Position numbers and translations under genes: made by a program. The notes beneath the pieces were generated by a model, which saw nothing but the letters and a program-made list of their open reading frames with translations, did no database searches and was not told the DNA's origin. Source: a virus (taxonomy: Duplodnaviria; Caudoviricetes). From it: 64,000 nt of DNA. Positions 16,520-43,208 of this stretch are shown one piece after another (the stretch's first letter is position 1; each line of letters opens with the position of its first letter). The stretch covers positions 424 to 64,423 of the IMG/VR virus record IMGVR_UViG_3300035696_002955. One strand, 5' to 3'.

Positions 16520-16580
16520 GACATTCGCGTTGCGTTCAAAGGACGAAGTTCTAACCCTTTGATGAATAAGGAGAATTACA

Positions 16581-17861: not shown

Positions 17862-17874
17862 TCAACGCTGAAGC

Positions 17875-17902
17875 GGCAGAACTCGAAAGGGTTCTGCCTT
17901 TT
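17875..17902 (+). terminator. Intrinsic terminator after the capsid gene
   Basis: GGCAGAACTC-GAAA-GGGTTCTGCC followed by TTTT. Confidence 0.85.
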
Positions 17903-17949
17903 CAGGTAAACAGACACAGGCAAGATCCCCACAAGGAAAGGTAAAACTC

Positions 17950-18849: not shown

Positions 18850-18858
18850 AAATCCCTG

Positions 18859-19596: not shown

Positions 19597-19616
19597 ACCA
19601 AGGGAGATAATGGATC

Positions 19617-20744: not shown

Positions 20745-20746
20745 TC

Positions 20747-21454: not shown

Positions 21455-21470
21455 CCGAATTTTGAGCGGG

Positions 21471-21479
21471 TGGTACTCT
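21471..21479 (+). promoter_or_regulatory. TGGTACTCT promoter motif, copy 4
   Basis: Intergenic, after TAG 21454, upstream of GAGGA SD and ATG 21528. Confidence 0.7.
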
Positions 21480-21527
21480 TCTTCACGTTGTAGCGGGGAA
21501 TCCTGTCCCGCAGAAGAGGAAACCACC

Positions 21528-22748: not shown

Positions 22749-22772
22749 CCGGACGGCGGGGAGTCGAGATCA

Positions 22773-25544: not shown

Positions 25545-25547
25545 ATA

Positions 25548-27419
25548 ATGTCCGCAGGACCAACCATATCGCCGCAGAAGATACTTGCCGCCTCGCAGGG
25601 TGACTCCGCCAGCTTGCTGGAAGTCCTGAATCAGATCTGCCAGGTCTCGGTGCAGCAGCAGACCGTGACTGGCACCACCGCCACCGGCACCACCGCCGGG
25701 CAGCCCAATCCATCTGCGCGCCGCCCCGCGCAAGCCACGGGCACGGTGAGCCTTCTGAATGGCTCCTACATCGTCCAACTCGTGAATCCCGGTGGAAAAT
25801 CAGCCCTGAGCAACCTTCAAGCCGCCCAGGCCGCAAAAAACGCGACTTCGGCAACCCCCCTTCAGCCGGTAACGCCGATTTATCACCAGATCAGGGTTTC
25901 GACCAGCCGCGCCTTCAACGTGAACTCCAACACGCAGACGTTCGGGGGCGACACCGGGTCCACGCAAATCTATTGGACGTTGACAGGACTCGGAACCGGA
26001 AACTGGTATTTCCAGTTCCGCTCAAGCTATGACGGCGTGAACTGGAACACTTGGAAAAATACGAACGGCGGCCAGGGCTCTAGCATCGAAGAGGTCACCG
26101 TAGAGGATGAAGGAAACACGGTTTGGGCGGTGTTTAGCCTTCCCGGCAAAGAAACCATGGGCGTGGGAGAGGGATACCTCAGCGACCAAGAGGCGTTCGG
26201 CCTGCCTACAGGGCTGTACTCCTCGGGGATGGCGGCCATTGCTGGACCTAACGGCTTTGCAGTTGAGCCAGGGCAAATAAACTGCATCAATGAGTGCGAT
26301 GTACAACTCCAAGCCCCCACGACAGGCACGGGGGCCACGGGAACCCTTGATTATCCCCCTTATGTCGTAATGAAATATGGAGGAAGGGGAGATCCGCCTC
26401 CGCGCTACAGCGGGATCGCTAATGTGTTCGCCATAGCCTACGACCCCACAGGCGAGAACAACACCGTGTATTCCAGCCCACTCACCAGCGCGGGTTACCC
26501 AGACGTCAGCAATGACTACTCATCCTCCGCAGGAACTTGGGCCGTGTTCACGCTGCCAGGAGGGTCGCAATTTGCCGTTGGCTCGGGATGTGGATACAGC
26601 GGCGACACGATATTCACCCCTGCGGAGTGCCCTTGGATCAAAGCTGCAAATATGCTCTCTATCTGCTCGATTCAGAACAGCGATGTCGGCGACAATGGAG
26701 CGCACGGCATCAACCAGTGCTGTCTTACTGGGCTGACGCTGACAGCGACGTATGCGGACTACGGGAGCGCCGACAATGTGTGGACGGGGGGCGCGACGTG
26801 GCTGGCGGTGGCATGGTCGCCGGGCCACACGCCGGTATCCGTCACCGGTGGTGAGTTCCTCGTTATCAATCTGTCCGACGGAAACAAGATCGCCTTCGGT
26901 GCGGGTTCCTTGTTGAACGCGGGGGCCAGCTTCAGTCTGCCGCCTGGATTCTCAGAATCTCAATTGATGACGATCGGGATACCGGGTTCGTTCAGTGGGA
27001 GTGGAGACAACGTACTGCACGCTGTTTCTCAGTGCGATATATCAGGGACGACGGCCCAACTGACCTATGTGGATGGCTCGGGAAACAGTTGGAGCGGGGC
27101 TGTGAACTGGTTTGCCTTTGCGTGGGCCAATGCTTCGACCGTAAGTTCTGGCACCGCAGGCATCGTGGTTACCATCAGCCCGAATCAGGCCGTGCTCTAC
27201 ACGAATGGAACTTTGACCTTCACCGCCTACGTCAGCGGAACTCCCACCCAAACCGTCACTTGGTCCGTGGACGGCGTGGCGGGTGGTAACTCCACCGTGG
27301 GCACCATCACTTCCGGCGGCGTCTACACCGCCCCAGACACGCAGGGCCCGCACTACATTACTGCGGCGAGCACGGTCAACAGTCTCATCGTGGGCGGCGC
27401 CTCTGTCACCGTAAACTAG
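25548..27419 (+). CDS. Tail fibre/receptor-binding protein with three tandem repeats and a C-terminal Ig-like (Big_2-type) domain
   Basis: FN3-like YFQFRSSYDGVNW; repeats W(A)VF(S/T)LPG / FLVINLSDG; VTISP...VTWSV...GVYTAP. Confidence 0.75.
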   Translation: MSAGPTISPQKILAASQGDSASLLEVLNQICQVSVQQQTVTGTTATGTTAGQPNPSARRPAQATGTVSLLNGSYIVQLVNPGGKSALSNLQAAQAAKNATSATPLQPVTPIYHQIRVSTSRAFNVNSNTQTFGGDTGSTQIYWTLTGLGTGNWYFQFRSSYDGVNWNTWKNTNGGQGSSIEEVTVEDEGNTVWAVFSLPGKETMGVGEGYLSDQEAFGLPTGLYSSGMAAIAGPNGFAVEPGQINCINECDVQLQAPTTGTGATGTLDYPPYVVMKYGGRGDPPPRYSGIANVFAIAYDPTGENNTVYSSPLTSAGYPDVSNDYSSSAGTWAVFTLPGGSQFAVGSGCGYSGDTIFTPAECPWIKAANMLSICSIQNSDVGDNGAHGINQCCLTGLTLTATYADYGSADNVWTGGATWLAVAWSPGHTPVSVTGGEFLVINLSDGNKIAFGAGSLLNAGASFSLPPGFSESQLMTIGIPGSFSGSGDNVLHAVSQCDISGTTAQLTYVDGSGNSWSGAVNWFAFAWANASTVSSGTAGIVVTISPNQAVLYTNGTLTFTAYVSGTPTQTVTWSVDGVAGGNSTVGTITSGGVYTAPDTQGPHYITAASTVNSLIVGGASVTVN

Positions 27420-27436
27420 ACGGGGAGGGAAGAACA

Positions 27437-27877
27437 TTGGATGCGAGCTTCTGGAAGGGATACCGGCGCAAGACTGGCTCTCTGACCTGGAGGCTGGCCA
27501 CGCCTGAAGATGTGCCGCGCATCCGCCATCTTGGAAAAATCATGGAACGGTTTCTCGGGCTCAAGCAGGACTTCCCGGATATGTTCGCGCGTCCCGTGCT
27601 GCTCTGCCTGGTGGCGGAGAACGAGGCCGGCCAGATCGTTGACGGCCTCTACATCGAAGCCAAGGCGGAAATCCTCAAGATCAACTGCACGGCGCGCGGC
27701 TATGCCGGGATGGAAGAGATCAAAGATGACCTGCAGAACTGGCTTAAAGGCATCGGCTTCCGCTATGCCAATATCGTAGCTCCCCGCAAGATCAAGGGAA
27801 AGATGCTTCCCCAACTGAAGCGGATGGGGTTCTGGGAAATCGGCTCCCGGTTTTCTCACTGGATGCGCAGGCTGTAA
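27437..27877 (+). CDS. GNAT-fold-like virion assembly protein (T7 gp13/P22 gp14-like position)
   Basis: WRLATPEDVPRI...CLVAENEAGQIVDG...QLKRMGFWE acetyltransferase-like pattern; TTG start after GGGAGG. Confidence 0.6.
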   Translation: MDASFWKGYRRKTGSLTWRLATPEDVPRIRHLGKIMERFLGLKQDFPDMFARPVLLCLVAENEAGQIVDGLYIEAKAEILKINCTARGYAGMEEIKDDLQNWLKGIGFRYANIVAPRKIKGKMLPQLKRMGFWEIGSRFSHWMRRL

Positions 27878-27890
27878 GGGATTTCTCTCG

Positions 27891-27899
27891 TGGTACTCT
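27891..27899 (+). promoter_or_regulatory. TGGTACTCT promoter motif, copy 5
   Basis: Intergenic, before GGGGGAG SD and ATG 27928; 17-nt identity with copy 1. Confidence 0.7.
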
Positions 27900-27927
27900 C
27901 TACCCGCTTTAGGGGGAGATTGCCAGG

Positions 27928-28755
27928 ATGAGCAGCGCAGCAGGAGACCAGGCCAAAGTAGCGAACGCCGCGGCGACGACAGACGCAGGATACGCATCTT
28001 CGGCTCTCGGTTCGTATAACGGCGACATTGGCACCTATCTGAGCAACGTGAACTCGGCGCTCTCTGCCGGCAATCCCTTTCAGTCGAAAGACTACCTGAC
28101 CAAGCAAAACCTTCAAACCTCGGGTGCCATGAACTCGGCGAACGACGCAGAGAAGCAAGCCTTGGGCGAGACGGTAGCGCGCACCGGAACCAACAGCGCG
28201 GCCGTGGCCAACACGGTAGCTGACAGCGCCCGGCAAGGGCAGCGCGACTTGACGCAGTACAACGCCGGCCGCGATACGGCCAACGAGGATACCTGGCTGA
28301 ACCAGCAGGACAAGCTGATGGGCGACCAGTTGGCTGGAGCCAACTCCCAGGCCGGGGTCTACGCAACTTCGCTCGGTGGCCAGAACAGCACTCTCGAAAC
28401 GGCGCAGCAGGGCGCAGACGCGCAGACAGCGGCGAACGATGGAATGATCGATGCCGGCATGACGGCGGCAGGAACTGCTGCTGGCGGATATTTCACAGGC
28501 AAGTGCTGGATTGCCGCGGAACTGTACGGCGGCTGGGATGACCCGCGCACGGTGCTGGTGCGCAGGTGGGTCAGAGATGACCTTCCAAAGACGTGGCTTG
28601 GCCGAATTGCCGATGCGGCTTACGGGCGGTGGGGAGAGCAGTACGCCGTCCGCATCAAGACGCATCGCATTGAGCGCGCAATCATGCAGCACGTCTTTGA
28701 CTGCGCACTGATGGCTGCACGCAAAAAGTACGAGAAGCCAGCGGGAGGCCGCTAG
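27928..28755 (+). CDS. DNA ejection protein 1 with a C-terminal CFI-box-like domain
   Basis: A/Q/S/N-rich helical body; GKCWIAAELYG...LVRRWVRDDL. Confidence 0.7.
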   Translation: MSSAAGDQAKVANAAATTDAGYASSALGSYNGDIGTYLSNVNSALSAGNPFQSKDYLTKQNLQTSGAMNSANDAEKQALGETVARTGTNSAAVANTVADSARQGQRDLTQYNAGRDTANEDTWLNQQDKLMGDQLAGANSQAGVYATSLGGQNSTLETAQQGADAQTAANDGMIDAGMTAAGTAAGGYFTGKCWIAAELYGGWDDPRTVLVRRWVRDDLPKTWLGRIADAAYGRWGEQYAVRIKTHRIERAIMQHVFDCALMAARKKYEKPAGGR

Positions 28756-28756
28756 G

Positions 28757-30319
28757 ATGCCAAGTCCTTCATTTGATGGAGAAGACGAAGAAGCGACGCC
28801 TGTAGTCACTCCTGCGGACTCGCTGTACGGGTTGGCCTACGAAGATCAACCGCAAGCGCCACCTGACGCCGCGCCTGCGCCCGTCGAGGTTGTAGCTCCC
28901 GACCAATCGCAGGGGCAAGTGGACCCGCGTGCGCAGACTTATCTAACTGCGCAGGATGCGGAAGCGCCCACCGATTATGCCAGTAAAGGTGACGGCGTGG
29001 GCGGTCAGCCCTTGCAGGACAGCATGACGGATATGAGTCTGCTGGCGATGAAGCCGACCAGCCTACCCACCGATTACAGCCATGCCAGCCAGCCGCTCTC
29101 TCCCCCCAACTACGAGCAGTACCAGCAATATGGTGATCATTCCGCGGATATGGCCGCCTATACCGCGCAGAAAGCGGCCGAGGCCAAGGAGAACACCAAG
29201 CCGAGTGTCTGGCGCCGGTTGGGTGCCGGTCTGGCGGGCGGCATGGTGGCCTTCGGGACGAAAAGCGGCGAGCAGGGGATGAAGGTGGCCGAAGAGGTCA
29301 ATGGTGCTCCGCTGGCCAACGCCCAGCGGCGCTGGGCGCAAGCAGAAGCCCCGCTACAGGCAAAACTGCAAGCCGACCAGGGACAGGACGCGGTGACCGC
29401 CCGCAACAATACTCTGATCGGGCAGCGGAATAACCTGGCGCAAACCACCTACGCTGACCAGATCCGTGAGGGCTTGTACAACGCCCACGAGAATCAATTC
29501 AACGCCACGGCGAACAAGACAGACAACACGCCATTGGGCTTCACTCCTGATGATCCGAACAACCCCTACGCGGGTGGCACCATCACGAATGCGGATGGCA
29601 AGACGGTAAAAGGACCGCCCCCTGACAAGTGGATCGCAAACTGGGAGAAAAGCCCGGAGAACCAAGCAAAGAAGGGTTTGATTACGCTCCGAGCGATGCA
29701 AGCCGGAGGAATCAAGCTCACTCCCGAGCAGCAAGCCATTGTCGCCTCTGGCGGCAAGGTCACTCCCAGCGTCCATACCAGCATCAACATTGCCGAGAAC
29801 CCCGATGGTTCGGCCAGGGTTCCCGCCGGAAGCGTGGTCAATTCGCCCGATGCGCTGATCGCCAAGAGTATGCAGGACAAGGCAGATTTTGCGAACCAAT
29901 GGACCAGGGTAGGACACGACCAGGCTTCGGACGTCATACCGGAAGGTTCCTACATGAATACCTCGACCAACGCTCTCATGTCAGGACCGGAGTACAACAG
30001 CAGGATTGAAAGCTTCCGAACTAATCTGAACGCCAACCCCTACATGCGCAAGGCCGGCATCATGGTCGACAGGCAAGGCAACACGATTACCGACCGCTTC
30101 TCGCGGAACCCGCAAGTGCAAGCGCCGGCAGCCGCCCAGCAGCCAGCGCAGCCGGCACACGCCCAGCGTCCTGCCGCTCCCGCCCAGCGTCAACCATCTC
30201 CACAGGCTACGGCAGCAAAAGCGAGCCAATTAAAGCCCGGTGCTCACATTCTTGTTGACGGCAAGCCGGCAATCTTTAAGGGATACGACCCGAAGACGGG
30301 CAAAATCCAAACCCAGTAA
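28757..30319 (+). CDS. DNA ejection protein 2
   Basis: 520 aa, Q/A/P-rich with a central GLAGGMVAFG membrane-like segment; between ejection protein 1 and the giant protein. Confidence 0.7.
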   Translation: MPSPSFDGEDEEATPVVTPADSLYGLAYEDQPQAPPDAAPAPVEVVAPDQSQGQVDPRAQTYLTAQDAEAPTDYASKGDGVGGQPLQDSMTDMSLLAMKPTSLPTDYSHASQPLSPPNYEQYQQYGDHSADMAAYTAQKAAEAKENTKPSVWRRLGAGLAGGMVAFGTKSGEQGMKVAEEVNGAPLANAQRRWAQAEAPLQAKLQADQGQDAVTARNNTLIGQRNNLAQTTYADQIREGLYNAHENQFNATANKTDNTPLGFTPDDPNNPYAGGTITNADGKTVKGPPPDKWIANWEKSPENQAKKGLITLRAMQAGGIKLTPEQQAIVASGGKVTPSVHTSINIAENPDGSARVPAGSVVNSPDALIAKSMQDKADFANQWTRVGHDQASDVIPEGSYMNTSTNALMSGPEYNSRIESFRTNLNANPYMRKAGIMVDRQGNTITDRFSRNPQVQAPAAAQQPAQPAHAQRPAAPAQRQPSPQATAAKASQLKPGAHILVDGKPAIFKGYDPKTGKIQTQ

Positions 30320-30332
30320 TGAGGCACAAAAC

Positions 30333-33300
30333 ATGGCAACCGCGCCCGTCAGTTTTTCGTCTGCGGAGGTTGATCCGAGTTCTGCGCAGAACGCTTCGCA
30401 GCCGGTATCGTTTTCTTCGTCAGAAGTAGACCAGCATCCCCAGCAGCAGGGTCCGGTAAACCCCTACGCGAACAAGACACCCTCGGCGCCATGGTACGAA
30501 CGCGCGCGCCAGTATGTCGCCAACGGGCCGGTAGGAAAAACGCTCCAGGCTGATGCTCCGGGCGTAGCTCAGACGCTGCATCTCCAGCCGACGCCGGACC
30601 AATCGCCAATACCAACGAACAGCGTTTATCAGAATAACGATGTGCTGCATGATCCGCTGGGGATGAAAACCGCGCCCCCGGTGAACAACCATAATCTGCG
30701 CCCACTGGTCACTGCAAAGCCCACCATCAAGACCCCGAACCCCGCGGAGGAAGAGTTCAATAGCGAGTTCAAGGGGCCAAGCTGGGAACCAGCGGCGCGG
30801 CCGGCACCGGCGAACGCTTACGTCGAGATGGAGCAAGATGCCCACCCGGCCCCATTCGTTCCTGTTGCGCCAAACCCTGTGTACGAGCTTGCGCAACCGA
30901 CTCCACCCAACATGGACGCGATGCAGCAGCAGCATGACTCGCGCGTGGCAGCCTTCATCAAGGCAAACCCTTTAGTCGTGAATGACCCGTCCTTCGGACA
31001 ACTTGACCCAAACCAAACCGACCTCCCCAATGACCTCAAGCAGCAGGCGTCGCTGGAGTATTCCGCATTAGCCAAGGCGGGGCTTTCCGCAAGGGATGTG
31101 ACGGACTATTTACGACAAAATAGCGCGTTCAACTGGCATCCGATTCAGGCTGTAAAGGAAGCAAATCAGGGACTCGGAAACATCGCACAGAGTCTCGGAA
31201 CAGATGAATACGCACGGTTGCAAAGCCTTTACCCGGACGCGAGCGAAAAAGAGATAGATGAACTGGTAGGACAGGAAAGAGCAAAAGCAGGGCAGGGAAA
31301 GGTTAATTGGAACCAGACGGCGCAAGGCGGGACGCAGGTCATTGGCGGAGCAATGGGACTCAGCCAGCCGTTAATGGCGGCAGGTGTCGCTGCTGCCCCC
31401 TACAAGATGATCGCCGGTTATGTTGCGGGCGTGACGGCGGGATACGGCTCTGACTATATGGCCGACAAGCTGAAGATGAGTCCTGAGATGAAGGAGCTTG
31501 CCCACACGGTAGCTTTCGTAGCCCCGAACGCTTTTGCCGACTTTATGTCGCTACGAGGTTCTGTTGGTGAAACCACGGCACGCATTCCCGATCCTGTCAC
31601 GGGCGAGATACGAGAGGTTCCTGTCAAGACCGCTGCTGCCGGTGGGCGCGGCTTCGGTGTGGGAGTAGGTAAAGGCGAGGATGGCTCCTACTATGCCGCA
31701 GGACGCGTGGGACCATTCTCCGCTCGTGCGAAGTGGGGGGGGGCGCCTGATGGAGCTCCGAGTCCTGCCGGCGCGTCCAGGGAACTGACCGCCGGTGCGG
31801 GAGCGCCCGGTGAGCCGCCGGCCCCCGGCTCCGAGCCCCCGGCCGCGCCGGCCGCTCCCTCCGACGCGACGACGATCCAAATGCAGGCGCAAATGCAGAC
31901 GGTGCAGGAGACGGCCGCGCGCGCCGCGGGGGTTCAAAAGCAAGCCGAGCAGGTTGCCGGCATGACCCCGCCGCCGCCGCTGGCGCCGAAGCCGGGAGAG
32001 CCGGGATCGGGCAAGCTACCGAGTCCTGCCGGCATGGACGATGGGCACCTCTCGCAGGACACGGTGGACAAGGCTGGCCAAGCCATCCAGATGCTGCCGG
32101 AAGCGAACCGGCCGGGAGCCATCCGTGAGGCCGTCGGCAATCTCGCCTCGTGGATGTTCGACAAGAAAACAGTGGTGGGCCCCGACAACAAAGTGGTGAA
32201 CGTGGACAGCCAGCGGGCCGCCCAGACCGAGGCCGTGAAGATCATCAACGCCGAGGTTGACCGGCAGGCCGAGAAGGCGCAGAACGCCGCGGAGCAGCAG
32301 CAGGAAGCCATCGAACAGCGCCAGGAGAGCGCGACCCAGGCGCAGCAGGAGAGAGATGAGGCACTTTCACCCCAAAAGGCTACGAAACCCACAGCAGATG
32401 CAGGGCCGGTGGAGATTCCCAACACGCCATCCGTCCAGAAAGCTCGTAACGTGCTGGCGTCCGCTCCGATGGACACGCCGGCAGCAGACCTTGATGTGCT
32501 GATTCGCAGGACCGCGACGGTCACGACGCCGGTGCGCAAGGCGCTGGTGCAGGAAGAGGTCACGCGCCGGGCCAATCAGGAGCAGGACCAGGCACAAGTG
32601 GCCATGACCGGCCAGCCCACCCCGGAGGGCCAGAGCCGCGAGGAGTTGCAGCGGTGGGCCGACGGCGTGAAGGCTGGCGAACATCCCTTCGTCCACATCC
32701 CCCAGGAATCGAACTTCAAGCCGCAGGGTGTGGAAGACCTGACGCGGACGCCGGTCAAGGGCGCCGGGGCCTTCAGCGGAACGTACTACCACGCTCCCGA
32801 GGTCAGCGCGGCAGACATTCGCAAGGCGGCGCGGGACAAGAAAGACCCCCAGGGCGCGCTCGATGCGCTGGTGGCCGGATTCAAGGGTGAGGAGAAGCCG
32901 GTCGAGTTCGCAGGACACGAGGTTGAGGCCGCGCCGGTCGAACTGAAGCCGGAAGAAGTCTCGCAGGAAGCGCCCGTACCTGTCATAGGGCGCCCGGAGC
33001 GTACCGACCAAATCGGGGATCAGCACAAAGCCGAGGGGGGAGCAGAAGCCCCTGTCGAAGCCGCCCCCGTGGGACAAAACGCTGTTCCTCTATCGACGAT
33101 GGATCGTTTCAAGAAAGCCCAACAAGCCAAGGCTGACAAGTACCTAGACACCGAAGGCAGGATGCCTGATGGGAAAACCTCTACGCGCCGCGAACGCATA
33201 GATAAGAGGCTTGCGGATGGTTGGAGGGTATCTGTAGAGCAAGTCAAGGACGATGCTGGAATACGGCGCATCGAACGCGAAATAAAAGAGTTGGGACGCG

Positions 33301-36300
33301 GCCATGATGGATGGGGGGCACCCGCCAACGAGAATCACCCGGACAGGATCAAGCTCAATGGGCTCAAGGCAAAGCTGAAGGAAGGTCCGACAATCCCCGA
33401 GTACGTAATCAGTGATGGCAACGGGGATGACAGGATTATCTCGAAGACTGAATTTGACTATGCAAAGTCGATCGAGGGCAACTCGGCCGAGGTAGAAAAA
33501 CCAGAAACGGAGTTAAAACGAAACATTTCCGGGCCTGAATCCCCAATAACGAAACCGGCCCAAGGGGTTTCGTTATCCCACCCCAAAGCGTTTGAGCAGG
33601 GCCGCTCTCAGATCGGGAAGAAGTATGGCGAACCGGGGTACATGGACAACCCCTACAAGCCTGAGACCGAGAGCCATGCCGCTTTTGAGGCTGGAAAAGC
33701 AAGCACGAGTACCCCGACTGAGACGAAATCGCCAGAGGTTGAGACGAAACCCGCTGAGCAAGAACCCAAAGCGGTAGAAGACGAGACAACGGAATCGCAC
33801 CTTGAGAAGGCAAAGAGCAGCCAAGAGGCCATCGAGAACGCCTCGAAGGTTCGCCCCCTCAAGGAACTGACGGTTCGACCCACCAAAGCCGTTCGGCAGG
33901 GATACGTCAAATCTTTTGACCCGGACAACGGGTGGATCACCGACGGGTATATTGGCATCGACACGAAGCAAGCTGTACCCACGGCCAAGAAGAAGATCGA
34001 GAAGATCATGCCGCCGGCAGATGGCCCCAAGTTTGGATCGACTCCGTGGGGAATTCTGAAAGACACGCTGGCCGCCGCGACGGTGCCGGCTGAACCGTTG
34101 GGGTGGATCAAGACCTCTCTCTTTACCGACAAAAAGGGGCAGGAATCCCCGCCAGCAGATGTTGTTTTCTTTGGAGACAAGGACGGGAACACCTACACCT
34201 TTAACGCCCACATGGTGAAGTACCTTGATCAGGTTCTCGCCCCGGACTCGTATCGTATCGACCCGAATCCAAAGATGATCGCGCTGGTCCAGATCAAGGA
34301 CGGCAAGCCAGCCGGATTTGCCATGGCTTTGAGACTTCCTAAGCCGTACCCGCTGGATCACGATACTGCGCGTCAAACGATTGGTTCGATAGGTACATCT
34401 AAAGAGCCTGTAAAACTACCAGATGAAGCAGTATCCGGTCTCTCTCAGATCGCCGAAGAAGCCGTTTCCGAAGACCCGCGCGCTACCCTTGACGACGTTC
34501 TCCGTGACCCGAATGATGGCAAGATAATTGCAGAAGCCCTTGTGAATGACGGTATAATCACCGAGAGTGATGACAACGTGAATCCTGCCACAGCCCTGCT
34601 AACGACCTCCGCGCGCGCCAAAGTTGGGGATGCTCTTCTCTCGACCGTCATTGGTCCTGAACTGGCCGCTTCAACACCATCTTTCATCAAAGAGAAACTG
34701 CTTGGCAGCATGGGATCAATCGGGTCTATTTCCGGGGCTGACGATCGCTGGAACCTGAAGCCGGCACTCATCGAGGCGGTCAGCCAGTTCGGCCAGCACT
34801 TCAGGGGCGAGGACGACGTGCCCGACGCCGGGCCGGTGGTCGACGCCATCCTGAAGAAACTTGACTCCCCGATAGATCGGGTGCGGCAAGCGTTCACGAC
34901 CTACGCCGTGGCGCAGACGAACGCAGAACCAGAAGACGACCCGGTGATGGACTTTAATCTGGCGTTCGGTACTGAACTCACCGAGGAGCAGTTCGCGGAC
35001 GGCATCAAGGCCGAAGCGAAGGACCATCGCGCTGCCGCAGGAGCGACGGATTTCGAGATCGTAACTCGGCCGGATGGCGGTTTTAAAGTGGTATCTCCGG
35101 GGTATGCGACTTCATGGTGGACGGGATGGAACCGAGAAGGAGCTGAGAAGTGGATCGCTGAGGCTAGGCAGAACAATGCTAGCCACCAATCGGTTGAGAA
35201 GGTATCATCTGCCAAGGTGCGCCTTAACGCAATCCCTGATGATGGATTGAAGCCGGGAAACCTTCTCACCAGAAATTTCCTGCCGGTTGATATAAGTGAA
35301 GGCGCATCTGCGTTAAATGCCGCGTTTTCAGACGCAGCATCGAGAGATAAGGCGCTTTCAAAGGCCCGAATTGAAGATGTACCAGTAAGCCAAATCATCA
35401 CGCCGCAAAATGTCGTTTCTCGAAAAACGATTGAGGGATACCTGTCTGGGAGGCCCATTACCGATTCCTCGGTGATCCTCGTCAAGCACGGGGAAAACTA
35501 CTACATTGACGATGGAAACCACGCGACTGTAGCTCAAATCCTGCAAGGCGCTAAGACGATTCGCGCTAGGGTGATCGACGCAGACTCCTCCCCTCGTCCT
35601 CTCCAGAAGGGCGACAAGGTCACCTACAGGACCAACAAGGGCAAGGAGCGCACCGGAGAAGTCGCCTGGACGGACGGCAAGAAAGTACGGGTCAAGGACG
35701 GCAAGTCGGAAGTCAGCAAGAATATCGAGGACGTGAAGCCGGTCAAGGCCGCGAGTCCTGCCGCTGTTGAGCCATCCGCCCCCGAAGTGGCCGCCGACGC
35801 CACCCTCGTAGACGCCCTGCAACTGGCTTTCGAGCACGGGCGCGGCCCGAAAGACTACAACGGCCTGAAGAAGATCGTGGAGGAGTTCGACGGCAAGAAA
35901 CCTGACCAGCTTCGCATGAAGGAGGGTCAGGAAGCCTACGAGGCCATGCTGAACCGGGTGGCATCCCAGCTTGTCATCAAAGAGGAGGGGCACAGCAGCC
36001 GCGAAGTCTACGACCGCCTGACCAGGCTCTACGAGGGTCAGCCCAACCTCGCCATCCGAACCAGCACCAGCATCGACAATCAGGCATACTCCACGCCGTT
36101 ACCGCTGGCTTTCATCGCTGACAAGTTTGCCGGCATCAGCTTCAGGGATGGAACCACCGTCTACGAGCCGACGGCTGGCAACGGAGCGCTGCTGATTGGC
36201 GCCGACCCCCGGAAGGCCACGGCCAACGAACTGAACCCGGCGCGCGCCGCCATGCTCGAAGCCGAGGGCTTCAGCGTCAGCCGCAATGACGCGACGACCT

Positions 36301-39300
36301 GGACGCCCACAGGACGCTACGACGCGGTGGTGGCCAACCCACCCTTTGCCAAGCTGGCTGGCCCGGTCGAGATCGATGGCTACAAGCTCGTCAAGCTGGA
36401 CCATCTGATTGCAGCCAAGGCACTTGGAGTGATGAAGGACGCTGGAAAGGCTTGCATCATCATCGGCGCCGGTGACCGGAATGAACCGGGAAATGTGACG
36501 AATATCGCCCGGCCGTTCTTCAATTGGCTGTATTCTCACTACAACGTGGTCTCCGACTTCGAGTTGGATGGAGACCTGTACGCGCGCCAGGGGGCATCGT
36601 GGCCCGTGCGCGTGATCGCCATTGACGGCAGGGCGCGCACCGCCAAGGTGAGTCCTGTCGCTGAAGAGATTCAACGTCTGAAGACGTGGGGTGAGGTCTA
36701 TGACAAAGCAAGTGAGCATCTGGGCGCCAATCTTGAAGATCAACGACGAGCCGACGATGGAACTGGCGATCCAGTGCGGGTTTCAACCGACAGAGCAGCA
36801 GTATCGGGAACTCCTGGAGGACAGGCTGGTGTTGCTCATCAAGGAGAATCCGAAAGGGGCGCAACAGGACATGGATCAGATGGACGGGCGGGTGTGCCCC
36901 GACCTGTGCAACATACGGGCGGAGTACCAGACCCGCGAGTGGGCAGTCCAGATCTCACAGTCCGATCAGATGGGGATGTTGCTCAGTCGAATCGACTGGC
37001 AGAGGGAGAACCCGCCGCGCATCCTGTCAGACGAGAACCTGGCAAGCCTGATGGACATTCTGCAAATGCTCTAGCTGATGAAAGCAACCAGTTCCAAGGC
37101 ACGTACCATCCTGTTTCGTCGAAGCAGGACGTAAACGTAATGGCCCCCAAGGCCCTCATCGACCCGATGCGTGAGGCCATGGAGCGCATCAAGGCCGACG
37201 TTGGGGACATTGACGAGTGGGTTGCTGGCGAACTGGGATACCCCGACATTGAGACGATGCACGAGGTCTTCATGGGCCTGCAAGTGGACGCGGTGGCTGC
37301 CGCAATCCACAGCCTTCAGCAAGGGAAGGCGCTCATCGCCGCCGATCAGACCGGAGTTGGGAAAGGGCGCGTCGCCGCCGCGATTATCCGCTGGGCCGAG
37401 ATGCACGGACACCTTCCCGTCTTTGTCACCGCTGGCGATCAACTCTTCACGGATATGCACCGCGACCTGCACGACATTGGTTCTGGGGATGTGATCTGCC
37501 CGCTGATCTTCAATGCCGGCTCGACCATCACTGACGCGGTGACCGGAAAGAAAATCTTCGGGAATAATGGCGCGATGCGTCCTGTCTTCGAGCGTATCCA
37601 GGAGACGGGCGAGATTCCGGCAGGACGCAACGCCGTCTTCCTCACGTACTCGCAGATCAACACCGAGAACCGCCAGCAACTCGCCCTGCTCCGATTGGCG
37701 CCGAAAGCGGTCTTTGTCCTTGACGAAAGCCATAATGCCGGCGGCGATTCAAACACGGGCCACTTCCTTCAGGGGGTGCTCGCTGCCTCGAAGGGAGCGG
37801 TTTTCCTGTCGGCGACCTGGGCGAAGCGGCCTGACAACCTTCCGCTCTACGCCGCCAAGACGGACATCGCTATCGCCATCCCAGACAAGGACCGGATTGC
37901 AGGTGCAATCGCTGCTGGAGGCGCGCCGCTCCAGGCAGTAGTGACTCACCAACTTGCCGAGGCCGGGGAGCTTGTCCGCCGGGAGCGTTCCTTCGATGGC
38001 ATCGAGATCAGCAACTATGTGGACGAGGCTCATAAAAAGCAGCATGAGGTCATCGCCGACAAGGTGACTGAAGTCCTGCGGTCCATCGTGGCCGCCGACA
38101 GCGCCTATCACAAGCTCGACTTTGAACGCCTCCAGGCGGAGTTGAAAAAGGCCGGAAAGTCCGGGAGGAGCGATAAGGTCGTGGTCAACCACATGGAGTT
38201 CTCTTCCACCGTCCACAACCTCGTGAGGCAACTCCTGCTGGCGCTCAAGGCGGACAACGCGGCTGATCTTATCGTCAAGGCAATCGAAGACGGGAAGAAG
38301 CCCATCTTTGCCCTTGAGAACACAATGGGATCGTTCCTTGACGGTTACATCACCTCACACGGCATGAGCGAGGGAGACATTCTGGGCGACTTGACGTACT
38401 CGAAGATCGCCGACCGCGCTCTGATGCGCACGCGCTATTACAACGAGACCGACCAGATGGGCAACAAGACGCGCATCGAGGTTCCGCTGGACAAACTGAG
38501 CGCGAAGGTACGGGAAGCCTACGACGCGGCCCAGGCATTGATCGACAACCTGAATGTTGACCTTCCCGTTTCGCCCATCGACCACATCCGCAACAAGGTA
38601 GAGCAGGCCGGCTACAAGATCGCGGAGATTACCGGCAGGAAGTCGTGCATTGACTACAGCGGCAGTGTTCCGAAGCTGGCCACGGTCCCAGGCATCGAGC
38701 AGAACGACCGCGTGAACACAGCCAGCCAGTTCAACAATGGCGGGGGTGACGCGCTCATCATCAACCAGGCAGGCTCGACGGGCATCTCTCTCCACGCTTC
38801 CGAAAAGTTCCACGACCAGCGCCCGCGGCTGATGATCGTGGGCCAGCCGGCCGGCGACGTGAATATCGTCATGCAGATTCTTGGCAGGATCAACAGGACC
38901 GGCCAGGTGGCCCTCCCGAGCTACATCATGCAAGCGGTGGCGCTCCCCGCCGAGATGCGTCCGGCCATCAACCTTGCCAAGAAGATGAAGTCTTTGAACG
39001 CCAACGTGTCCAGCAACACGCGCTCGGCCACATCGGTTCATGCCGTGGACCTGATGAACAAGTACGGCGACCAGGTGATTGCCCAATATCTCGTGGACAA
39101 CCCGGAGATGATGAAACAGCTTGGCTTGGACATTCACGAGCCGGAAGCTGGCACAAAGTTTTCAGCGGACGAGATAGGGAATATCTCGATGAAGGCGACG
39201 GCGCGCTCGGCATTGCTGCCCGTGAAGCAGCAGCGCGAGTTCATGGACGCGATCAGCGAGGCGTACACCAACTACATCAACTTCCTCGACGAGACCGGGC

Positions 39301-42300
39301 AGAACGATTTGGAGCCGAAGACGTGCGATTACGACGCCCGCGAGACGCATCTTGAGCAAATTTATCAAGGCACGGACTCAACTTCTCCCTTCGGGCAGGA
39401 CGCGCATTACGGCGAGTATTCGATCAAGCGTCAAGGCAAGCCTTTCACTGCGGAAGAAGTTCAGGCGAAGATCGCCGACACGTTCGGTCCTGCGGCGATG
39501 CAGCTTTCACCGCGCGAGCGCGACACGCTGGCGGCCCGCGATCTGGCGGCGCACATGGAAGGCCTCTTCAAGCCTTACTCCGATGAGCTGAAGACGGACC
39601 ACGCGATCGAGAAGGCCGAAACGATGCGCTCGATGGGCCGCACCCTTCTGAGCGACTACCGGGTTGGGACAGGACTCCGAGTAGATTTCGACGGCAACAC
39701 GTTCAATGCCGTGGTGACCAACATCGAAAGCGCCAAGAAACCCAGCGGGAACCCCTATGCTCCCTCGACCTTGCAATTCACCCTGGCGGTCAACGGAGCC
39801 TTGCGGCAAGTGAGGGTTCCAGGTTCGCAACTCCACGTCATCTGCGTCTCGAACCTTGGACGCAACGCGGATATAAAGGAGCTTTTCAGGGACTATTCGA
39901 GCGACCGGCAGAAGGGCGTCAAGATCATCACCGGGAACCTGCTTGGGGCCTTCGGACAGTTCAACAAGGGCACCAGGGGGCGCATCATCAGCTTCACCAT
40001 GTCGGATGGCAGCACGAAGATGGGGATTCTGATGCCAAGCAAGTTCGACGTGAAGACCGACTTGACCGACACCTACGCCATGCGGTCGCCGGAAGGCGCG
40101 ATGCACTTCCTCCAGCGCGACGCAAAGCAAACCCTCATAAGCAGCAACGGGGAAGTGGGAGTCATCGGCAACGACCAGACCGGCATGGAGATCAGGACCA
40201 AGGTTTCCAAGGCCGCATCCGGCCAGTTCTTTCTCGACCCTAAGCTACTGGAGTTGGTTGTCGGTGGCGACTTCGCAAGCTCGAACGGCTTGATGAAGGC
40301 CGCAGTCAAAGAGGGACGCGAGTCGGATGTGCTGAACAACATCATGGGCAAGATCGCGCTCTACCCCACGCCCTCGATGATCGACCAGGCGCGCGAGTCG
40401 GATGTGCAGGTTGCGGCAGGACTCACAACCAAGCCAAGCGCGGCAAAGCATCTTGCCTCCAGCGGTGAGGCGTACTCCTTCCTGGGAAGCTACCAGATAG
40501 CCCAGGGGGCGCGCAGGACCATGGAGGACGTTGGGAAGCTCGGCAAGTGGTTGAAGGGAACGGCGGCGCCGGGAACCTGGGGCGAACTGACGAAGGCAGC
40601 GACGACGGCCGGGGCTACGGGAAAGCAGATGGCCTACGAGTTGGCCTCGGTCCTGTATCCGCCGATGCTGGCCGATGCCGATGCGCGCGACATCATGGGC
40701 CGGGCGCTTGGTGAGCCTGCGCTTGAACTCTTCAAGGCCGGCCAGTTCCTTGAAGGCGTGGACAAGATGTTTGAGGGAATGCCGCTCAAGGATCAGGTCG
40801 AGTTTGTGGACCGAATGCAGAACGGCAAGGAGCAGCCCACCAATGACCTGAAGCAAGCGCAGGGGATGCTTGAATCGGTCCTCGAAGCGCAACGCGCACG
40901 CGAGCAGGAAGTGGTCAACCTTGGCCGTTCCTCCAAGCAGAAGCCGATCGAACTGAAGAACCGCGCCGGCTACTTCCCGAACCGCTACTCTACCCCGCCG
41001 GGGAGCGAGAAAGCCCTGACCGAGCAGGAGCAGATGGCGCGCATCTTCCCCAAGCGTCCGTTCGAGGGTCCGAAGAACTTCACCAAACAGCAGAAATACA
41101 CGCTGAAAGAGGCTGTGGCGGCCGGCGCTGTTCCGCTCGGAAACCCCGTCAGGATGGTCCTGCGCAGGATTCAAGAGGGCGCGAAGTTTGTGGGCGCCAA
41201 TGAGGCCATGTGGAACTTTCGGCAGTCCGGCATCGCGGTCTTCAAGAGCCCGCGCGCCAAGACGCCTGATGATTACGTGAAGGTGCAGGACAAGATCGCG
41301 CAAGTTTGGCGTCCTGTCGAGACAGCGGAAGGCGGCATAGCGTTCATTCCCGGCGGCGAATGGGTGATGCAGAAGGACGCGGCCCGGCTGCTCAACAATT
41401 ACCTGAGCACAGACCACATTCGCGGCTCGGCTATCGGACGCGGATTCGTGGCGCTGAAGACCTCTTCGACGGCAATGAAGATGGGCCTGTCGCTCTTCCA
41501 CTATGGCGTTATCACCTTCTGGCAGGTAGACGGCGGGTTGCATTCCGGTCTCGATGAACTCTGGAACCAGGGCGTGCGCGACCTGAGCGGCGAGAAAGCA
41601 GTCCACGGCGTCAAGCAACTGGCCACGGCCATATTCTCTCCAGTCACATCCGTTCGCGGCGGCAGCAAGATTATGAACTATCTCAAAGACCCCGATAGCT
41701 TCCTGTCCACCAAGGCGGGTGAGAAGTTGGCGCGGGACTATCCTGACCTCCCTGAACTGCTACGGCTCGTCTTTGCCGGCGGCTTCCGGCCGGGGTTCAA
41801 TGAAGACCTGCCGGGCAAGTTCGATACCAGCATCGGTTCGGACTTGAAGGTGGGTAAACTCGTCAGCGGGACGATGAAGGCCATCCCTTGGCTGGCGCGC
41901 TCCGTGGCTATCCCCCTGTTCCAATACATCACGCCGCGGACGAAGCTCATGTTCAACGTGCAGATGCTGGCGCAGAAACTCGACCAGTACAGCGGTGCGA
42001 TCGCCGACGGGACCATCACCCCGGAGACCATCGCGCGCAACGTCGTGGCCTTGAATGACAACCGCTTTGGCGAGATCAATTACCAGAACAATTTCTGGAA
42101 CAACACCGTAAAGACGGCGATGCAACTCCTTTTCCTGGCTCCTGGCTGGAAGGAAGGCACATGGCGCGGCGCGGCCCAAGCCGTGCGCGAGACGTTCACC
42201 CAGGCGCACGACGACGGCTTCTATGACAGCCTTGAGCACGCTAGTGGAGCAGGCGCAGCAGGGAACGGGGGTGGCGGTACAGGAGGCCGGGGCACAGCAG

Positions 42301-43208
42301 GAAACAATGCGGAGCCGGGCGGCGGCCGTCGCGGTGACTGGGCGCGGCAGTACACGCACAAGCTCCCGCAACTGGGCCTGAACGCCGGCAGTCTGGTAAC
42401 CGCTGCGATCCTGGCCACGGCCATCGCTACCCTGATCGACAAGGAGCGCACGGGCAAATGGATCTGGGAACAAATTGAAGAGGACCGCAAGAAGAATGGC
42501 CTGAACTGGCTGCAAGCCGGAACGCTCGAAGCGTTGCACCCTCGCACCGGAAAGGTCAATCCGCAGACGGGCGCTCCAGTTCGCTTCAACCTACCGTCCG
42601 ATCTGCGCGATTACGAGCACGCGGTCGTGGCTCCTGCGGCCTACGTCTACAGTTCGCTGGCGCCGTGGCTCACCGGGATCATTAACACGCTGCGCAATCG
42701 GGACTCTCTCGGAAACTACGTCTACAACCCTGGTGCCTACTTGGCCACGCGCTTTAAGCAGGGCATAGCCTACAACCTGTCGCAGAGCTTCGATCCGATC
42801 ACGGCATCGAACTACACCAGCAAGTTTGGCCCACAGGACACAGAGACCAGGGTGGAGAAGACGTTTGGCGTTATCGGTGGAGCACCGCCAGAGTGGGACA
42901 TGACCCGCGCCACGGCCCGCGCTGAAGAGTTGAGGGGTCCACGTACCCCGATGACGCCGGAGCAGCAGCAAGCGGCTGCCTACGCGAAGGAAGCGCCCCC
43001 TACGCGCCACGCTGTTCTGAAAGCGATGCGCGAGAAGAACGTGACCGAACTGCAACGCATGGCGAAGATGAGTCCTGTCGTGGGGGGCTTGAGCTACCCT
43101 CAACTGAAGGACATTTACGACCATTACGCGAACCCGGACGAGCGCAAGATGCTCCAGCCGATCATGCGGCAGAAGCAGATAGCGGCAGTTATGGCGAGCA
43201 GGAGATAA
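30333..43208 (+). CDS. Giant (4291 aa) polyvalent ejection protein: ParB/Srx-like domain, N6-adenine methyltransferase, Strawberry-notch-type SF2 helicase (DarB-like)
   Basis: MTase YSTP...EPTAGNG...NPPF; helicase ADQTGVGKGR, DESH, LSAT, NQAGSTGISLH, QILGRINRTGQ; ParB-like YYIDDGNHA. Confidence 0.9.
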   Translation: MATAPVSFSSAEVDPSSAQNASQPVSFSSSEVDQHPQQQGPVNPYANKTPSAPWYERARQYVANGPVGKTLQADAPGVAQTLHLQPTPDQSPIPTNSVYQNNDVLHDPLGMKTAPPVNNHNLRPLVTAKPTIKTPNPAEEEFNSEFKGPSWEPAARPAPANAYVEMEQDAHPAPFVPVAPNPVYELAQPTPPNMDAMQQQHDSRVAAFIKANPLVVNDPSFGQLDPNQTDLPNDLKQQASLEYSALAKAGLSARDVTDYLRQNSAFNWHPIQAVKEANQGLGNIAQSLGTDEYARLQSLYPDASEKEIDELVGQERAKAGQGKVNWNQTAQGGTQVIGGAMGLSQPLMAAGVAAAPYKMIAGYVAGVTAGYGSDYMADKLKMSPEMKELAHTVAFVAPNAFADFMSLRGSVGETTARIPDPVTGEIREVPVKTAAAGGRGFGVGVGKGEDGSYYAAGRVGPFSARAKWGGAPDGAPSPAGASRELTAGAGAPGEPPAPGSEPPAAPAAPSDATTIQMQAQMQTVQETAARAAGVQKQAEQVAGMTPPPPLAPKPGEPGSGKLPSPAGMDDGHLSQDTVDKAGQAIQMLPEANRPGAIREAVGNLASWMFDKKTVVGPDNKVVNVDSQRAAQTEAVKIINAEVDRQAEKAQNAAEQQQEAIEQRQESATQAQQERDEALSPQKATKPTADAGPVEIPNTPSVQKARNVLASAPMDTPAADLDVLIRRTATVTTPVRKALVQEEVTRRANQEQDQAQVAMTGQPTPEGQSREELQRWADGVKAGEHPFVHIPQESNFKPQGVEDLTRTPVKGAGAFSGTYYHAPEVSAADIRKAARDKKDPQGALDALVAGFKGEEKPVEFAGHEVEAAPVELKPEEVSQEAPVPVIGRPERTDQIGDQHKAEGGAEAPVEAAPVGQNAVPLSTMDRFKKAQQAKADKYLDTEGRMPDGKTSTRRERIDKRLADGWRVSVEQVKDDAGIRRIEREIKELGRGHDGWGAPANENHPDRIKLNGLKAKLKEGPTIPEYVISDGNGDDRIISKTEFDYAKSIEGNSAEVEKPETELKRNISGPESPITKPAQGVSLSHPKAFEQGRSQIGKKYGEPGYMDNPYKPETESHAAFEAGKASTSTPTETKSPEVETKPAEQEPKAVEDETTESHLEKAKSSQEAIENASKVRPLKELTVRPTKAVRQGYVKSFDPDNGWITDGYIGIDTKQAVPTAKKKIEKIMPPADGPKFGSTPWGILKDTLAAATVPAEPLGWIKTSLFTDKKGQESPPADVVFFGDKDGNTYTFNAHMVKYLDQVLAPDSYRIDPNPKMIALVQIKDGKPAGFAMALRLPKPYPLDHDTARQTIGSIGTSKEPVKLPDEAVSGLSQIAEEAVSEDPRATLDDVLRDPNDGKIIAEALVNDGIITESDDNVNPATALLTTSARAKVGDALLSTVIGPELAASTPSFIKEKLLGSMGSIGSISGADDRWNLKPALIEAVSQFGQHFRGEDDVPDAGPVVDAILKKLDSPIDRVRQAFTTYAVAQTNAEPEDDPVMDFNLAFGTELTEEQFADGIKAEAKDHRAAAGATDFEIVTRPDGGFKVVSPGYATSWWTGWNREGAEKWIAEARQNNASHQSVEKVSSAKVRLNAIPDDGLKPGNLLTRNFLPVDISEGASALNAAFSDAASRDKALSKARIEDVPVSQIITPQNVVSRKTIEGYLSGRPITDSSVILVKHGENYYIDDGNHATVAQILQGAKTIRARVIDADSSPRPLQKGDKVTYRTNKGKERTGEVAWTDGKKVRVKDGKSEVSKNIEDVKPVKAASPAAVEPSAPEVAADATLVDALQLAFEHGRGPKDYNGLKKIVEEFDGKKPDQLRMKEGQEAYEAMLNRVASQLVIKEEGHSSREVYDRLTRLYEGQPNLAIRTSTSIDNQAYSTPLPLAFIADKFAGISFRDGTTVYEPTAGNGALLIGADPRKATANELNPARAAMLEAEGFSVSRNDATTWTPTGRYDAVVANPPFAKLAGPVEIDGYKLVKLDHLIAAKALGVMKDAGKACIIIGAGDRNEPGNVTNIARPFFNWLYSHYNVVSDFELDGDLYARQGASWPVRVIAIDGRARTAKVSPVAEEIQRLKTWGEVYDKASEHLGANLEDQRRADDGTGDPVRVSTDRAAVSGTPGGQAGVAHQGESERGATGHGSDGRAGVPRPVQHTGGVPDPRVGSPDLTVRSDGDVAQSNRLAEGEPAAHPVRREPGKPDGHSANALADESNQFQGTYHPVSSKQDVNVMAPKALIDPMREAMERIKADVGDIDEWVAGELGYPDIETMHEVFMGLQVDAVAAAIHSLQQGKALIAADQTGVGKGRVAAAIIRWAEMHGHLPVFVTAGDQLFTDMHRDLHDIGSGDVICPLIFNAGSTITDAVTGKKIFGNNGAMRPVFERIQETGEIPAGRNAVFLTYSQINTENRQQLALLRLAPKAVFVLDESHNAGGDSNTGHFLQGVLAASKGAVFLSATWAKRPDNLPLYAAKTDIAIAIPDKDRIAGAIAAGGAPLQAVVTHQLAEAGELVRRERSFDGIEISNYVDEAHKKQHEVIADKVTEVLRSIVAADSAYHKLDFERLQAELKKAGKSGRSDKVVVNHMEFSSTVHNLVRQLLLALKADNAADLIVKAIEDGKKPIFALENTMGSFLDGYITSHGMSEGDILGDLTYSKIADRALMRTRYYNETDQMGNKTRIEVPLDKLSAKVREAYDAAQALIDNLNVDLPVSPIDHIRNKVEQAGYKIAEITGRKSCIDYSGSVPKLATVPGIEQNDRVNTASQFNNGGGDALIINQAGSTGISLHASEKFHDQRPRLMIVGQPAGDVNIVMQILGRINRTGQVALPSYIMQAVALPAEMRPAINLAKKMKSLNANVSSNTRSATSVHAVDLMNKYGDQVIAQYLVDNPEMMKQLGLDIHEPEAGTKFSADEIGNISMKATARSALLPVKQQREFMDAISEAYTNYINFLDETGQNDLEPKTCDYDARETHLEQIYQGTDSTSPFGQDAHYGEYSIKRQGKPFTAEEVQAKIADTFGPAAMQLSPRERDTLAARDLAAHMEGLFKPYSDELKTDHAIEKAETMRSMGRTLLSDYRVGTGLRVDFDGNTFNAVVTNIESAKKPSGNPYAPSTLQFTLAVNGALRQVRVPGSQLHVICVSNLGRNADIKELFRDYSSDRQKGVKIITGNLLGAFGQFNKGTRGRIISFTMSDGSTKMGILMPSKFDVKTDLTDTYAMRSPEGAMHFLQRDAKQTLISSNGEVGVIGNDQTGMEIRTKVSKAASGQFFLDPKLLELVVGGDFASSNGLMKAAVKEGRESDVLNNIMGKIALYPTPSMIDQARESDVQVAAGLTTKPSAAKHLASSGEAYSFLGSYQIAQGARRTMEDVGKLGKWLKGTAAPGTWGELTKAATTAGATGKQMAYELASVLYPPMLADADARDIMGRALGEPALELFKAGQFLEGVDKMFEGMPLKDQVEFVDRMQNGKEQPTNDLKQAQGMLESVLEAQRAREQEVVNLGRSSKQKPIELKNRAGYFPNRYSTPPGSEKALTEQEQMARIFPKRPFEGPKNFTKQQKYTLKEAVAAGAVPLGNPVRMVLRRIQEGAKFVGANEAMWNFRQSGIAVFKSPRAKTPDDYVKVQDKIAQVWRPVETAEGGIAFIPGGEWVMQKDAARLLNNYLSTDHIRGSAIGRGFVALKTSSTAMKMGLSLFHYGVITFWQVDGGLHSGLDELWNQGVRDLSGEKAVHGVKQLATAIFSPVTSVRGGSKIMNYLKDPDSFLSTKAGEKLARDYPDLPELLRLVFAGGFRPGFNEDLPGKFDTSIGSDLKVGKLVSGTMKAIPWLARSVAIPLFQYITPRTKLMFNVQMLAQKLDQYSGAIADGTITPETIARNVVALNDNRFGEINYQNNFWNNTVKTAMQLLFLAPGWKEGTWRGAAQAVRETFTQAHDDGFYDSLEHASGAGAAGNGGGGTGGRGTAGNNAEPGGGRRGDWARQYTHKLPQLGLNAGSLVTAAILATAIATLIDKERTGKWIWEQIEEDRKKNGLNWLQAGTLEALHPRTGKVNPQTGAPVRFNLPSDLRDYEHAVVAPAAYVYSSLAPWLTGIINTLRNRDSLGNYVYNPGAYLATRFKQGIAYNLSQSFDPITASNYTSKFGPQDTETRVEKTFGVIGGAPPEWDMTRATARAEELRGPRTPMTPEQQQAAAYAKEAPPTRHAVLKAMREKNVTELQRMAKMSPVVGGLSYPQLKDIYDHYANPDERKMLQPIMRQKQIAAVMASRR
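36700..37074 (+). CDS. 124-aa nested gene in the +1 frame of the giant gene (MTKQVSIWAPILKINDEP...)
   Basis: GGGGTGAGG SD; 31 of the first 40 codons end in G/C versus 13 of 40 in the giant frame; giant frame here is a G/R/P-rich linker. Confidence 0.65.
   Translation: MTKQVSIWAPILKINDEPTMELAIQCGFQPTEQQYRELLEDRLVLLIKENPKGAQQDMDQMDGRVCPDLCNIRAEYQTREWAVQISQSDQMGMLLSRIDWQRENPPRILSDENLASLMDILQML

Follow-up and report, generated by a model that had tools for sequence, protein, structure and literature searches.

A conserved gene nested out of frame in the linker between the methyltransferase and helicase parts of a giant phage gene

The locus described here raises the question of whether an open reading frame (ORF) buried out of frame in a giant phage gene is itself a gene, and which of the two overlapping frames is then kept by selection. 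The window, a stretch of 64,000 nucleotides, covers almost all of a 64.4-kb virus record of IMG/VR (IMGVR_UViG_3300035696_002955) and has identical contigs in peat metagenomes. It carries on its + strand a giant ORF (30240–43208; 4,322 codons from GTG 30240, with the first ATG at 30333) in which a DNA methyltransferase (MTase) part is joined to a helicase part by a linker. A second ORF lies wholly within this giant ORF, on the same strand and in its +1 frame, and runs from ATG 36700 to TAG 37072–37074, which makes 124 codons plus the stop. An initial annotation had placed a 124-codon +1 ORF with a Shine-Dalgarno (SD) sequence between the MTase and the helicase, and these coordinates were confirmed, as was the observation that the nested ORF is a genuine gene. 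The best explanation overall, to which we assign a probability of about 0.85, is that the region 36700–37074 is read in two frames, giving a spacer of the giant protein and a separate acidic alpha/beta protein of 124 residues.

The coding signature of the two frames was compared over the overlap. The GC content at third codon positions across the whole overlap was 0.81 in the nested frame versus 0.33 in the giant frame, and a recount over the first 40 codons reproduced exactly the earlier figures, with 31 ending in G or C in the nested frame and 13 in the giant one. The giant-frame GC content at the three codon positions was 0.78/0.57/0.37 in the interval 36636–37130 and about 0.60/0.42/0.78 in the remainder of the gene; the normal coding pattern is thus shifted by one base within this interval only. 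An SD-like run, GGGGTGAGG (36688–36696), ends 3 nt upstream of ATG 36700 and also forms the Trp-Gly-Glu codons of the W-G-E-V-Y sequence in the giant frame. The giant gene contains other stop-free +1 runs of about 117–130 codons (130, 121 and 117), and the +1 frame remained open in 12–31% of synonymous resamplings in which the giant protein sequence was held fixed. Because comparable runs exist elsewhere in the gene, it is the frame switch and the conservation, and not the length, that constitute the evidence for a nested gene. A control ORF of the same size (37567–37941) showed no coding signature and was not conserved.

When IMG/VR was searched with the nested protein, six loci (L001–L006) gave full-length matches at 53–66% identity, and each of them contained an ATG-initiated ORF of 125–128 codons at +1, with the giant ORF open over the whole 6.3-kb locus. 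The same nested arrangement with an open giant ORF was found on a contig of an Acidobacteria metagenome-assembled genome (L051), and these seven related peat phage contigs are probably from phages of Acidobacteria. More distant members nested in an MTase–linker–helicase ORF were found in L007 (P0021), L013/14 (P0051), L068 (P0060) and L069/70 (P0064), and are about 25–30% identical to the window's protein. The alignment of the nested proteins showed conserved hydrophobic and Trp/Pro positions in a normal pattern, and its indels were of whole codons. Stop codons in the +1 frame of homologues were one of the two observations that the initial annotation had named as refuting, and the nested ORF was intact in the seven close relatives and the four distant lineages. 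The start of the ORF was equally constant. In all 11 nested relatives, the ATG is formed by the TAT codon for the Tyr of W-x-[ED]-V-Y together with the next G, and a GGAGG- or GGGAG-like run made from the Trp and Gly/Glu codons precedes it. The ratio of TAT to TAC in the gene outside the overlap is 26:77, and the invariance of TAT-G in a gene that prefers TAC is therefore a sign of selection for the nested ATG.

Selection on the two frames was estimated by an OLGenie-style count, in which each change was classed by its effect in both frames and confidence intervals (CI) were obtained by bootstrap. The nested-frame dNN/dSN was 0.30 (CI 0.22–0.40) and the giant-frame dNN/dNS was 0.75 (CI 0.55–1.00), while the changes that replace a residue of the giant protein and leave the nested protein unaltered occurred at d = 0.87, which is near neutral. 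Nucleotide differences were distributed as 0.26/0.25/0.38 over the nested codon positions and, in the flanks, as 0.20/0.15/0.52 over the giant-frame positions. In a further resampling, the nested protein was held fixed and codons were drawn at the frequencies found in the gene itself. The giant frame survived open in only 1.1–1.8% of such resamplings per genome, about 3.8 stops being expected, and yet it is open in every relative, close and distant. The giant frame being open everywhere, though resampling closes about 99% of cases, indicates selection for openness and hence translation. Thus, selection preserves the encoded protein in the nested frame and essentially only openness in the giant frame, and the ratios together with the resampling agree with the earlier proposal that the nested frame is the one under selection and that nothing more than openness is required of the giant frame; the comparison of dN/dS-type ratios across homologues that had been suggested as a check has here been made for both frames. 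The giant-frame linker (36702–37076; residues ~2155–2279) is of low complexity, open and barely constrained in sequence. Its translation is rich in G, A, D, R, P and V, which is in keeping with the disordered-looking G/R/P/D-rich string noted earlier.

The extent of the nested family was examined with a profile of the seven nested proteins, which was searched against 1.84 billion representatives. At E ≤ 1e-3 the family comprised at least 139 clusters, nearly all with proteins of 95–180 amino acids and none with a giant protein. Since no giant protein occurs among the 139 clusters, the family sequence is never an in-frame domain of the methylase–helicase pair. Several of the family matches were frame chimeras that pass from the nested frame into the giant frame and thereby betray the overlap. 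No match for the family was obtained in Pfam, PHROG, NCBIfam or PADLOC, and the Protein Atlas gave only weak, uninformative neighbours of the nested protein. The family PF14198 (TnpV) had no match in the genome (E ≤ 10), in 62 family members or in the second type of nested protein described below. Among GenBank phages, tblastn and blastn found no match to the nested ORF or its region, and among PLSDB plasmids tblastn found none to the distant members P0051 and P0120.

The AlphaFold2 model built on the 62-member alignment had a predicted local distance difference test score (pLDDT) of 96.1 and a predicted template modelling score of 0.87. The predicted fold starts with a beta-hairpin at the N-terminus, continues with five helices and a short strand, and closes with a further helix. 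The initial annotation had spoken of an ordered-looking helical protein; the order is borne out by the model and helices are indeed present, with the correction that the predicted fold is of the alpha/beta kind. Foldseek returned nothing better than E = 2.9 in the PDB and E = 0.72 in BFVD, and the best Z-score with VIA was 2.9 over 48,161 chains, so that the predicted fold is possibly new. The protein is acidic with an isoelectric point (pI) of 4.45, the family median being 4.9.

The nesting was found a second time in phages with a comparable giant gene. With the window's methylase–helicase region as query, tblastn at E ≤ 1e-10 retrieved only Bacteroides phage BS-TP4 and two records of Acinetobacter phage MD-2021a, and phage P1 was not retrieved. 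BS-TP4, which is a cultured phage, is the closest in GenBank, with 35% identity over the two domains and a G+C content of 45%. An ATG-initiated ORF of 119 codons is present there in the +1 frame of a linker rich in G, R, E and D (PQ571277 10032–10388; L053 2291–2650), and the annotation of this phage has only the giant coding sequence of 5,391 codons and leaves the nested ORF unannotated. This ORF is kept in relatives down to 45% identity, whose giant frame is free of stops while 9–16 stops fall in the third frame over the same span, and the nested ratio was 0.22 (CI 0.14–0.35) with a giant ratio of 1.32 (0.96–1.83). The BS-TP4-type protein has a pI of 4.26, and its model from five sequences reached a pLDDT of 81.6, with no match in the PDB and nothing significant in fold searches. 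The comparison of the window family with the BS-TP4-type protein by hhalign gave a probability of ≤0.2; both models begin with a beta-hairpin and a long helix, which is weak evidence of a relation. The linker of Acinetobacter phage MD-2021a is acidic and has no nested ORF, and P1 darB has no nested gene. A +1 run of 177 codons in P1 darB was considered as a gene and rejected, because it is overlain by ordered sequence with a normal codon signature. In P1 (AF234172; L074 26577–26975), iddB is annotated inside ddrB on the opposite strand, within the dar operon and adjacent to the DarB packaging genes, which is a different kind of nesting.

The giant polyvalent protein of the window has, in order, a ParB-like segment, an N6-adenine MTase, the linker, a Strawberry-notch-type superfamily 2 (SF2) helicase and a long C-terminal part. 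The MTase part (35772–36701; residues ~1845–2154) carries the motifs EPTAGNG and NPPF, has PHROG methyltransferase matches at residues 1941–2129 and a mean column identity of 79% in the alignment, and ends with K-T-W-G-E-V-Y. The helicase part (37077–39098) opens with a conserved N-Q-F-Q-x-x-Y-x-P-x-S-S, followed by AAA_34/ResIII (residues 2348–2604) and Helicase_C_4 (residues 2792–2953). With its N6-adenine MTase motifs and C-terminally fused SF2 helicase, this protein belongs to the “DNA methylase-helicase dyad” of polyvalent proteins, of which P1 DarB is the archetype (Iyer et al. 2017, PMC5512222). According to the same study, a Strawberry-notch-like helicase is carried by a few polyvalent proteins, and the methylase–helicase pair is among the commonest modules of injected anti-restriction proteins in phages and conjugative elements. 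By analogy and from the position of its gene, the giant protein would be packaged in the virion, injected and active against restriction.

The association of the small gene with the parts of the dyad was examined in a sister clade (L023–L050 of IMG/VR; 58–61 kb), where the helicase is 57–63% identical to that of the window and is encoded by a separate gene with stops upstream and a start ~25 codons before the conserved Y-x-x-x-S-S. Neither the MTase part nor the nested family is present in four complete sister-clade genomes, and both are present in a complete genome of the window's clade; terminal repeats were found in three of the four sister-clade phages checked. The joint presence and absence with the MTase therefore indicates that the small gene travels with the MTase–linker module and not with the helicase.

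Members of the family outside an intact dyad were of two kinds. Orphan copies with giant-frame remnants and with no MTase or helicase attached were found in L008, L010, L052 and L073, where the MTase part has left its final residues and the helicase part its initial 20–30. The copies of L011/12, L015/16, L071/72 and L009 are either free-standing or fused, and their other frame is riddled with stops. An intact orphan with 52% identity is present in the chromosome of Granulicella sp. S156 (NZ_LMUH01000022; L052 6001–6387), where it lies between an imuA/imuB/dnaE2 cassette and a group of two unknown genes, SRAP and GajA/GajB, ~3 kb from GajA/GajB, and still retains the giant-frame remnant G-E-V-Y-A-K-A directly before its ATG. 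In L010 the island is laid out in the same way, with an adjoining integrase and a TIR gene nearby. Stand-alone copies adjoin a type I restriction–modification (R-M) system (hsdR/hsdS) and a resolvase in L011/12 and are carried by a Rep3/ParA plasmid in L015/16. The search for stand-alone homologues called for by the initial annotation has thus been answered with copies on a plasmid, beside a type I R-M system and as an orphan in Granulicella. In a protein of 518 amino acids (P0016; L009 281–1837), an N-terminal hydrophobic segment and an Mrr_cat nuclease are followed by a C-terminal nested-family domain, and the PADLOC matches of the nuclease domain were PDC-S02, a ZorD-type Mrr nuclease and a type IV methyl-directed restriction endonuclease. 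A further protein, P0065, has the nested-family domain fused to Sel1/TPR repeats. Separately, a low-depth peat contig of 175 nt shares with the nested gene no more than its opening 39 nt (36700–36738) and has a giant-frame TAG directly after the Trp codon, upstream of this match; it may represent another orphan or a diverged copy of the nested gene in the same community. In L068 (770–5041 of a 10.9-kb metagenome contig), the gene caller gave only antisense ORFs and the nested gene and missed the giant methylase–helicase ORF, an example of the misannotation of such loci.

In the maximum-likelihood tree of the family, which is unrooted and built on few columns with ~17 tips of known context, nested members are distributed over all four major clades, and no orphan, free or fused copy falls outside a clade holding nested members. 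This pattern and the orphans with giant-frame remnants suggest an old nested state from which copies have repeatedly escaped, and they point to escape and not to capture. The idea in the initial annotation that a three-gene operon was fused through its middle gene received no direct support; no operon of MTase, small gene and helicase was found among the loci examined, and nested members are spread over all clades. Codon usage, the compact inner fold and the existence of free members argue for the linker frame being the derived one, and the tree with the remnant-bearing orphans speaks for a long residence in the linker. The codon usage of old overprinted genes can equal that of the genome, and such genes can exceed the overlapped frame in constraint (PMC3494269); codon usage is for this reason uninformative for old overlaps.

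We propose that ribosomes translating the giant gene would pass through the overlap and yield a disordered spacer that joins the MTase to the helicase, its linker being under selection for openness and probably for length and flexibility. Other ribosomes would start independently at ATG 36700 on the giant mRNA, with the SD for this start supplied by the Trp-Gly-Glu codons of the conserved W-G-E-V-Y. A crude scan for sigma-70-like promoters upstream of the nested ORF found none, the promoter type of the host possibly being different; with no promoter-like site upstream, the small protein would have to come from the mRNA of the giant gene. Several points weigh against this explanation. Only 3 nt separate the GAGG core of the SD from the ATG, which is a short spacing, and elongating ribosomes may hinder internal initiation on the giant mRNA. 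No RNA run was found to contain the window sequence, and the phage is uncultured. A slight constraint on the sequence of the linker is possible, as the upper bound of its ratio of 0.75 is 1.00. Finally, no fold or family match indicating a function was found, the functional reading being drawn from context, and an acidic protein of 124 amino acids would fit a DNA mimic equally with a binding partner.

As to the role of the small protein, we tentatively suggest that it could be a dedicated partner of the dyad (inhibitor, chaperone or regulator) made in cis, a suggestion based on its tie to the MTase module, on the precedent of Rz/Rz1 and on its uptake by host defence loci. Rz1 of phage lambda is wholly embedded in the +1 frame of Rz and has its own ribosome-binding site, and the two products are partners in one complex. 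The likeness is that of a same-strand, out-of-frame gene fully embedded in a larger phage gene. In Rz/Rz1, however, both frames are constrained and the embedded product is a lipoprotein, whereas here the outer overlap is a nearly unconstrained spacer in a protein of >4,000 residues and the embedded product is a predicted soluble acidic domain. The escaped host copies, including the Mrr fusion, could serve as decoy or sensor for the injected phage protein. That the small protein is a binder of the injected dyad which has repeatedly escaped to host defence (as a Gabija-adjacent decoy and a sensor of an Mrr nuclease), in a family perhaps born by overprinting of the linker, as its nested members in every major clade would allow, is a speculative extension that we regard as improbable.

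Among the alternatives to a partner of the dyad, the one that survives best, though still unlikely, is an independent anti-defence factor, such as an acidic DNA mimic of the Ocr/ArdA kind, that would hitch-hike in the linker and not bind the giant protein. The acidity of the protein and of its family agrees with such a factor, as do the stand-alone copies on the Rep3/ParA plasmid and beside the type I R-M system; its host gene encodes a DarB-type methylase–helicase pair, which is linked to anti-restriction (PMC5512222). Pfam, which would cover the known anti-restriction families (ArdA, Ocr, KlcA/ArdB and others), and PADLOC gave no match, a result with which a similar function is still compatible, but the fusion to an Mrr-type nuclease and the copies in host defence islands fit an anti-defence factor poorly, and in the related phages that were examined the strict co-occurrence of the nested family and the MTase part also speaks against it.

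The nested ORF begins exactly at the end of the MTase part, and this could be taken for a programmed +1 frameshift giving an isoform made of the N-terminal part and the MTase and ending in the 124-residue domain. Two-product designs made by frameshifting are common in phages. However, a TGA stop of the nested frame (36679–36681) lies 6 codons 5' of the nested ATG, and the nested frame in L001–L006 likewise opens only 18 nt before the ATG, which leaves just these 18 nt for a shift, and no recognised slippery motif was seen in them. The ATG is moreover invariant in the 11 nested relatives despite the use of the rarer Tyr codon, and the free-standing family members start with Met at the same alignment position as the nested ones. 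We therefore consider a frameshift very unlikely. An intron, an intein or a translational bypass at the overlap was also considered and rejected, as the outer frame is selected to be open and the inner ORF is out of frame.

Still less credible is that the locus consists of three separate genes in which the open giant frame over the overlap is not translated; the sister-clade helicase gene does stand alone with its own start, but in the window's clade there is neither a stop after the MTase part nor a conserved helicase start, and the giant frame is open in every relative against the closure expected from resampling. An ORF arising by chance in a GC-rich gene, or by an assembly or compensating-frameshift artefact, for which only the similar stop-free runs and the frequency of open +1 frames by chance would speak, can be dismissed with near certainty because conservation, selection, family and fold evidence all contradict it, the control ORF lacks its signature and conservation, and the contigs of two independent peat metagenome runs are identical where they cover the region, with no indels.

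Other features of the window were recorded beside these results. The eleven large ORFs upstream of the giant gene (12523–30319) had no PHROG match (E ≤ 1e-5; nine tested) and no Pfam match (E ≤ 1e-3; eight tested), and the structural module of the window's phage group is very distant from those of described phages. A DnaB-type replicative helicase of 799 amino acids (50956–53355, – strand) contains LAGLIDADG/Hom_end domains at residues ~431–513, between DnaB_N and DnaB_C, and this interruption is probably an intein.

The arrangement was compared with what has been described in other systems. P1 DarB resembles the giant protein in having an N6-adenine MTase followed by an SF2 helicase in a multidomain phage protein, and differs in being without a nested gene. 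The survey of polyvalent proteins (PMC5512222) mentions no overlapping gene, the word “overlapping” occurring 0 times and “nested” only for a hairpin, and no published description of a nested gene in a methylase–helicase linker was found in an incomplete coverage of the literature. The overprinted genes of viruses (Sabath et al. 2012, PMC3494269; PMC8227390) are alike in that two proteins are encoded by one stretch of DNA, with purifying selection far stronger on one frame than on the other. Overprinted proteins are, however, mostly predicted to be disordered (PMC3494269), whereas here the embedded protein is confidently predicted to be folded and the outer frame to be disordered. It is also unusual for an overprinted gene that the window's family has members that stand free and others that form a domain of a different protein. 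Phages are known to have embedded genes on the same strand, and what is new here is the embedded family with its possibly new fold and its escaped copies in defence loci.

These findings have a bearing on how such genes are recognised and on the control of giant phage proteins. Because gene finders forbid fully nested genes on the same strand, the nested family is called only on short contigs in which the giant ORF is cut, and it is invisible in complete genomes, including that of the GenBank phage BS-TP4. Here, a linker between two domains that is nearly free in its own sequence accommodates the coding sequence of another protein, which is under strong constraint. A small protein tied to the methylase–helicase pair offers a lead on how giant proteins may be controlled, chaperoned or countered, and this lead is strengthened by the fact that two or more versions, unrelated in sequence, occupy this position and by the copies in host defence loci. 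If the escape of a dyad-binding protein to host defence and the birth of its family by overprinting are true, the family would document how a gene that arose de novo in an overlap can become an independent family with shuffled domains in the arms race between phage and host.

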